Source of the DNA: Escherichia phage KookSpook
Strand: one strand, 5' to 3'
Sequence record: PP925842.1
Length of the DNA: 64,000 nt
Shown here: in pieces, positions 63,952 to 63,984 of the stretch
Layout of the letters: each line of letters starts with the position of its first letter
How positions within the stretch are numbered: the first letter of the stretch is position 1
Program-made: the position numbers and the translations under genes
Notes under the pieces: model-generated
The model's input: only the letters and a program-made list of their open reading frames with translations
Database searches by the model: none
Told to the model about the DNA's origin: nothing

Positions 63952-63984
63952 AGTCACGGTATGTTATCGTTTCATACCGTGACT
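63952..63984 (+). other. Perfect 12-bp inverted repeat (hairpin)
   Basis: AGTCACGGTATG-TTATCGTTT-CATACCGTGACT; no clean T-run follows. Confidence 0.5.

Follow-up and report, generated by a model that had tools for sequence, protein, structure and literature searches.

The window, by which we mean the whole stretch of 64,000 nucleotides of Escherichia phage KookSpook that was analyzed, comes from a T5-like phage (Demerecviridae, Tequintavirus). Toward its right end, the plus strand carries the llp/small-membrane-protein operon (62432-63848), a tightly packed, co-directional array that opens with llp (62432-62698), the gene for a receptor-blocking lipoprotein, continues with six small membrane-protein genes, and ends, according to the open reading frame (ORF) listing, with a gene of 81 aa at 63603-63848. 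The homologous operon of T5 is llp-ORF148-151, with the putative early promoter T5P41, and the Bf23 annotation is likewise homologous. Two tandem paralogous small membrane-protein genes at 63160-63428 form direct repeats, both beginning with MEWVI..., and this pair points to a local duplication inside the array. A loop-less 20-bp perfect palindrome (AATTTGGAAATTTCCAAATT, 63847-63866) overlaps the stop of the final small gene and is not conserved in T5, Bf23, or Kenya-K15. Transcripts of the operon head toward a hairpin (63949-63987) that begins 100 nt 3' of the last plus-strand gene; the earlier note had correctly placed it downstream of the small-gene array, whose last plus-strand ORF stops at 63848.

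Over its last 141 nt, the window matches MG065692.1 with 100% identity, and from this unannotated record we read the next gene past the window end. This gene is dmp, which lies on the minus strand, encodes a 5'-deoxynucleotidase of 244 aa, and has its stop codon at window-equivalent 64001-64003, 13 nt from the right arm of the hairpin. (MG065692.1 is titled "UNVERIFIED Campylobacter phage C13," a host label that looks doubtful because its sequence is that of a Tequintavirus close to Salmonella and E. coli T5-like phages.) The hairpin and the dmp stop are separated by a spacer (TCAACTTCAATTG, 63988-64000 on the plus strand) that is a weak U-rich tail in the plus sense and an A-rich 3' UTR leader of dmp in the minus sense, and that reads ATTTTATTTTTAATT in the related loci L028, L036, L037, and L038. 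The hairpin occupies the end of two converging transcription units, the llp operon on the plus strand and dmp on the minus strand. Only the first of these was weighed in the earlier note, and its picture has to be completed by dmp, which abuts the hairpin from past the window end, inside the terminal repeat.

The direct terminal repeat of the genome probably starts just upstream of the hairpin. At 63890-63898 (plus strand), the window reads TGTCCACTG, which is identical to T5 nt 1-9, the repeat starts annotated in Bf23 and Kenya-K15 are at most 10 nt from the 63890 point, and the record ends of several relatives agree with a repeat start near it. By this homology, we infer that the repeat of KookSpook starts at ~63890, where the virion DNA would have its left physical end. 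The hairpin would then be ~59 nt inside the terminal repeat. In the left repeat copy, it would lie at that distance from the DNA end that enters the cell first, and in the right copy, the llp operon and dmp would converge on it.

The palindrome and its counterpart in T5

Arms of 12 nt (AGTCACGGTATG and CATACCGTGACT) around a 9-nt loop at 63952-63984 had been described in the earlier note. They are present, but perfect pairing runs 3 bp further on each side, and the inverted repeat has perfect 15-bp arms (AATAGTCACGGTATG, 63949-63963, and CATACCGTGACTATT, 63973-63987; 100% complementarity), a 9-nt loop (TTATCGTTT, 63964-63972), and A/T-rich outer stem ends (AATA...TATT). We determined how often such a structure arises by chance using 100 first-order Markov shuffles of the whole 64-kb window, in which perfect inverted repeats with loops of 3-20 nt were counted. 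On average, a shuffle contained 0.07 repeats whose arms reached 12 bp or more; arms of 15 bp or more never occurred, the maximum in any shuffle being 12 bp. The inverted repeat is far beyond chance. As RNA, it folds on either strand, with -22.5 kcal/mol for the plus strand (z = -6.7) and -22.4 kcal/mol for the minus strand (z = -6.3), and none of 200 shuffles folded equally well. We assign the stem-loop to the minus strand, since pairing is best kept in the dmp-mRNA sense, although the plus strand folds too. There is no second copy of the arm sequence elsewhere in the 64-kb window. The longest perfect inverted repeat of the window is another one, at 917-965, with 20-bp AT-only arms (TATTATATTTAAATTTTATT and AATAAAATTTAAATATAATA) and a loop that is also 9 nt long. 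No Rfam match at gathering score and no tRNA was found in the window, and a permissive search of the junction returned only sub-threshold hairpin noise.

The hairpin resembles an intrinsic terminator in some respects only. It is a stable stem-loop with G-C pairs on either strand, and it stands at the end of a transcription unit, whether this is the plus-strand operon (100 nt after the last gene) or dmp (13 nt after the stop). What it lacks are a U-tract right after the stem and a compact loop of ~3-8 nt. The earlier note saw no clean T-run, and this holds: the T-scores of the tails are 1.15 in the plus sense and 0.16 in the minus sense, and a consensus promoter/terminator scan of the window made no call at the hairpin site. 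The plus-sense tail score of 1.15, the 9-nt loop, the 15-bp stem, and the missing scan call all count against a terminator in the window.

A counterpart is annotated in T5. In AY587007 (the Hangzhou T5 record, annotation of Wang et al. 2005), a "putative rho-independent terminator" is listed at nt 69-105 and 111683-111719, in both repeat copies, and it closes the leftward pre-early operon that runs from promoters T5P1/T5P2 through A2 and A1 to dmp. The "+" label of this terminator was rejected as a clue to its direction, every terminator in AY587007 being written on "+", and the element named "Palindrome A" in the T5 annotation (nt 899-925) is a separate one. The T5 hairpin has perfect 15-bp arms and a 9-nt loop (TGTTTCACCCTGCAA ccattttaa TTGCAGGGTGAAACA), and it is followed by a conserved spacer (ATTTCAACTTTAATTA) and the dmp stop codon at nt 124. 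The window hairpin, like that of T5, lies between the left genome end and the dmp stop, has the same arm and loop lengths, is present in both terminal repeat copies like its T5 counterpart, and is embedded in homologous flanks, with GTTGAAAT before and TTAGC after it in the dmp sense. Unlike these flanks, the stem and loop are unrelated in sequence (AATAGTCACGGTATG versus TGTTTCACCCTGCAA), and the window variant begins 3 nt earlier relative to the flanks, 57 rather than 68 nt from the terminus. Judged by its location and flanks, which match, and not by its stem sequence, which does not, the window hairpin is the positional ortholog of the T5 nt 69-105 hairpin. None of the terminators listed in the Bf23 record, which are noted as ARNold predictions, falls at the hairpin position, and the records listed among the matches carry no annotation under the window-type hairpin. 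By position, the element is thus already known from the T5 annotation, but its stem has a different sequence.

Conservation of pairing and strand asymmetry

The earlier note proposed that conservation be checked in relatives, and this check was positive for the structure, which is kept while the sequence is replaced between lineages. We gathered the region 3' of dmp from 38 IMG/VR loci, 11 metagenome loci, and several GenBank phages. In Markadamsvirinae, 30 distinct sequence contexts display two stem types, A (window-like) and B (T5-like), which share the same geometry and homologous flanks and have unrelated stems. Since the flanks are homologous with a 3-nt offset, a joint MAFFT alignment lost the structural register, and the two types were analyzed apart. 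In type A (13 distinct sequences), three pairs have changed on both sides (A-U to C-G, G-C to A-U, and G-C to C-G), and pairing is 100% in the dmp sense (195/195 cells) versus 88.7% in the plus sense. This difference arises because three positions that are G·U in the dmp sense become A·C in the plus sense; the plus-sense mismatches are near the loop, and the 11-bp lower stem beside the tail stays intact. Dyad symmetry is broken at one or two positions in 11 of the 13 type-A variants. In type B (17 sequences), three pairs again show double-sided changes, with pairing of 96.5% in the dmp sense versus 94.9% in the plus sense. Not one of 500 shuffles reached the observed covariation score, and in slid controls, 20-52% of cells were paired. 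With its compensatory changes and its pairing above controls, the hairpin is, on this comparative evidence, under selection for pairing.

Distant lineages have their own unrelated stem of 10-15 bp after dmp, as seen in Sugarlandvirus, Myunavirus My1, Priunavirus, and several Vibrio/Aeromonas-type phages. At least seven stems other than types A and B occupy the slot. The stem lies 9-37 nt from the dmp stop in most lineages (82 nt in L094/L095), and its distance to the physical left end is 57-68 nt throughout Markadamsvirinae and, for most lineages outside them, 45-65 nt. Two individual cases are informative. In L036 (IMGVR_UViG_2974569706, ~1950-1990), the type-A loop is inverted (TTATCATCA in place of TAATGATAA), and both wobble positions are back to Watson-Crick pairs, which suggests that the palindrome flipped and that pairing was then repaired in the dmp sense. 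In L017/L018 (IMGVR_UViG_2974674535, ~1945-2050), the box downstream of a T5-type hairpin is that of type A, and this mosaic indicates that hairpin and box recombine as separate modules.

The wobble pairs are distributed asymmetrically. Leaving out the unconstrained outermost pair, we counted seven sites with G·U in the dmp sense versus one with A·C (P = 0.03), the single counter-example being L256, and when other lineages were included, the ratio was about 13 versus 2 (P = 0.003). G·U intermediates occur almost only in the dmp-sense strand, an asymmetry whose significance is modest and which is weak in the T5-type stem. A strand-specific mutation bias was ruled out as its source, since the two transition classes in the flanking dmp gene are balanced (77 versus 78). 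The tails behave in the opposite way. A U-rich tail is present on the plus-sense side in 11/11 lineages, although it is marginal in two, and it is canonical in L028/L036 (T-score of 3.76, TTATTTTTAATT) and in L102 (4.61, TTTTTATTGCTT), whereas on the dmp-sense side, no U-tract was found in any of the 11 lineages (T-scores of 0-1.1).

Possible roles at transcript ends and at the genome end

Stem conservation favors the dmp sense and the U-rich tail the plus sense, and because these signatures run in opposite directions, we read the element as serving both converging units. The explanation that we consider probable is that, as an RNA stem-loop, it provides the pre-early dmp transcript with a 3' end and protects this end, and that it also weakly terminates transcription of the converging early operon. 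On the minus strand, where it lies 13 nt past the stop of dmp, the last gene of the leftward operon (A2-A1-dmp), the hairpin most likely forms the stable 3' end of the dmp mRNA. In this sense, it would pause RNA polymerase or terminate it weakly, and above all, it would block 3'-to-5' exonucleases. During first-step transfer, the left repeat copy is all the DNA in the cell, and polymerase would otherwise run off ~60 nt further on; with the template ending there, a U-tract would not be needed in the dmp sense. Since no lineage has a U-tract on that side, the element is not a canonical intrinsic terminator in its best-paired direction. In concatemers and in the right repeat copy, plus-strand transcription would meet the hairpin followed by UAUUUCAACUU, which would be a weak intrinsic terminator in this phage and would reduce the number of llp/small-gene transcripts that run on antisense to the pre-early genes. 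Across lineages, its plus-sense strength would range from that of a weak to that of a good intrinsic terminator. That transcripts end or are stabilized at the hairpin, and how much weight each direction carries, we infer; in the T5 literature searched, no transcript 3'-end data were found for T5-like phages. Of the options in the earlier note, that of a terminator, taken more broadly as an RNA 3'-end element, is supported by the position between converging units, the T5 "putative rho-independent terminator," and the covariation.

The strongest alternative, which we nevertheless regard as rather unlikely, is a rho-independent terminator that acts on the plus strand only, for the early llp/small-gene operon, the minus-strand fold being a by-product of the palindrome. 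This would account for the invariable plus-sense location of the U-rich tail, which is canonical in L028/L036 and L102, for an llp operon that runs straight into the hairpin, and for plus-sense mismatches that are confined to the loop-proximal part and spare the 11-bp lower stem beside the tail. However, it predicts the opposite of the wobble asymmetry that is seen (7 versus 1 in favor of G·U in the dmp sense, with A·C in the plus sense), for which there is no mutational bias, and it leaves without a reason the return of both wobbles to Watson-Crick pairs in the inverted loop of L036. Moreover, the left repeat copy has no transcription from the plus side, and the Priunavirus hairpin follows dmp without a U-rich plus-sense tail.

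A second element adjoins the hairpin. Comparison of relatives revealed a sequence-conserved box at 63908-63934 on the minus strand (GGGGGCGGTAATGAGACTCATTCTCAT in the dmp sense), which has a core GGCGGTAATGAGACT (dmp sense) at 63917-63931 and contains a 6-bp inverted repeat (ATGAGA/TCTCAT, 63908-63913 and 63919-63924). The box is kept in type-A T5-likes, Pectobacterium My1, and Vibrio phages, and a diverged form is found in T5, Sugarlandvirus, and Priunavirus; its sequence conservation spans three subfamilies, together with that of an end motif (...TGGAC). Using the 15-mer core as an IMG/VR probe was uninformative because the >120 hits are about the number that chance predicts by a rough estimate of the collection size. 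In Priunavirus, there is an extra gene between dmp and the end: the hairpin is directly behind dmp, 334 nt from the terminus, and the conserved box (GGGGGCGGTTCGGAGACT) and the end motif remain at the terminus. By its distribution, the box is a separate, terminus-linked element. Together with the end motif, it may be the signal for end recognition or for terminase in Demerecviridae, a role for which it is better suited than the hairpin. No terminase recognition site was found in the T5 papers searched.

A role of the hairpin in the DNA itself, as a hairpin or cruciform ~60 bp inside the repeat that would serve terminase cutting, repeat duplication, or protection of the 3' tail after 5' resection, appears improbable to us. 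It would explain the near-constant distance to the left end (57-68 nt in Markadamsvirinae, 45-65 nt in most others). G·T is the least disruptive mismatch in DNA hairpins, and the G·T-tolerant strand is the one with its 3' end at the left terminus, so this tolerance is equally expected for a single-stranded DNA hairpin of the dmp-sense strand. It also counts for such a role that the mechanism of T5 repeat duplication is stated as not known (PMC8108384). But in the one lineage in which hairpin and terminus are far apart, Priunavirus, the hairpin stays with dmp, and it is the sequence-conserved box that stays at the terminus. The stems turn over freely while the terminase genes are highly conserved, which means that recognition could not be sequence-specific, and the distance of 9-37 nt to the dmp stop is accounted for by the RNA reading. 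Somewhat less probable again is a variant in which the hairpin would be not primarily a transcription signal but a strand-specific single-stranded DNA structure near the left genome end. It would act with the end motif (...TGGAC) and with the neighboring box GGCGGTAATGAGACT, which is conserved family-wide, and would help terminase to cut, the 10-kb repeat to be duplicated, or the DNA that enters first to be protected.

Processing of the pre-early or early transcript by RNase III at the hairpin is very unlikely. T7 early mRNAs are processed by RNase III, and a long perfect stem in an untranslated region would suit the enzyme, but typical substrates extend over about two helical turns, which the 15-bp stem does not reach and the 10-13 bp stems of other lineages reach even less, and on the minus strand, there is nothing downstream that needs separation. 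Least credible of all is a double-stranded palindromic site for a dimeric regulator or nuclease, the "protein-binding palindrome" of the earlier note, which would fit the perfect dyad symmetry in this phage and the non-coding stretch, but which we dismiss because its half-sites vary in sequence (besides types A and B, at least seven more stems are found in the slot), because the compensatory changes keep pairing and not sequence as stems are replaced, and because 11/13 type-A variants are without full dyad symmetry and carry G·T pairs tolerated on one strand.

Taken together, the best reading of the hairpin is an ordinary transcript-end signal, probably part of the phage's transcription punctuation, with a mild strand asymmetry. 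On its own, its significance is little. In this unannotated T5-like genome, it would mark where the pre-early operon ends on its 3' side as well as the first ~100 bp of the terminal repeat. The comparison of relatives indicates, in addition, that selection acts on the structure of the long-annotated "putative terminator" of T5, and mostly in the sense of the dmp mRNA, in line with the idea that a protective 3' hairpin, and not a classical terminator, may be what pre-early transcripts from an injected DNA end require.

Comparison with known systems

As an RNA element shared by two operons, the hairpin is reminiscent of the bidirectional terminators between convergent genes of E. coli and its phages, in which one palindromic hairpin with A/T-rich outer stem ends is likewise common to two converging units. 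Unlike these, it has no symmetric A-tract/U-tract, its tails score 1.15 and 0.16, and its loop and stem are longer than usual. Two other repeats of the window have arms of the form AAA...TTT, at 35296-35324 (AAACCCCAGTGAA tta TTCACTGGGGTTT) and at 18694-18722 (AAAGCCAAGAA tgcctag TTCTTGGCTTT), and in contrast to the hairpin with its weak tails, they have the appearance of canonical bidirectional terminators. In the dmp sense, the hairpin resembles the 3'-terminal stem-loops that stabilize mRNAs, with which it shares a stable stem soon after the last stop, no U-tract, and pairing, including G·U, that is kept in the mRNA sense; it would then act as an exonuclease barrier.

The third comparison is with the hairpin and packaging signals at T7 concatemer junctions, where an inverted repeat is likewise found near the boundary of a direct terminal repeat. 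Hairpin intermediates have been proposed at these junctions for the duplication of the terminal repeat in packaging. Unlike what would be expected of such a packaging hairpin, the hairpin of Priunavirus L097 does not track the terminus, in this one lineage.
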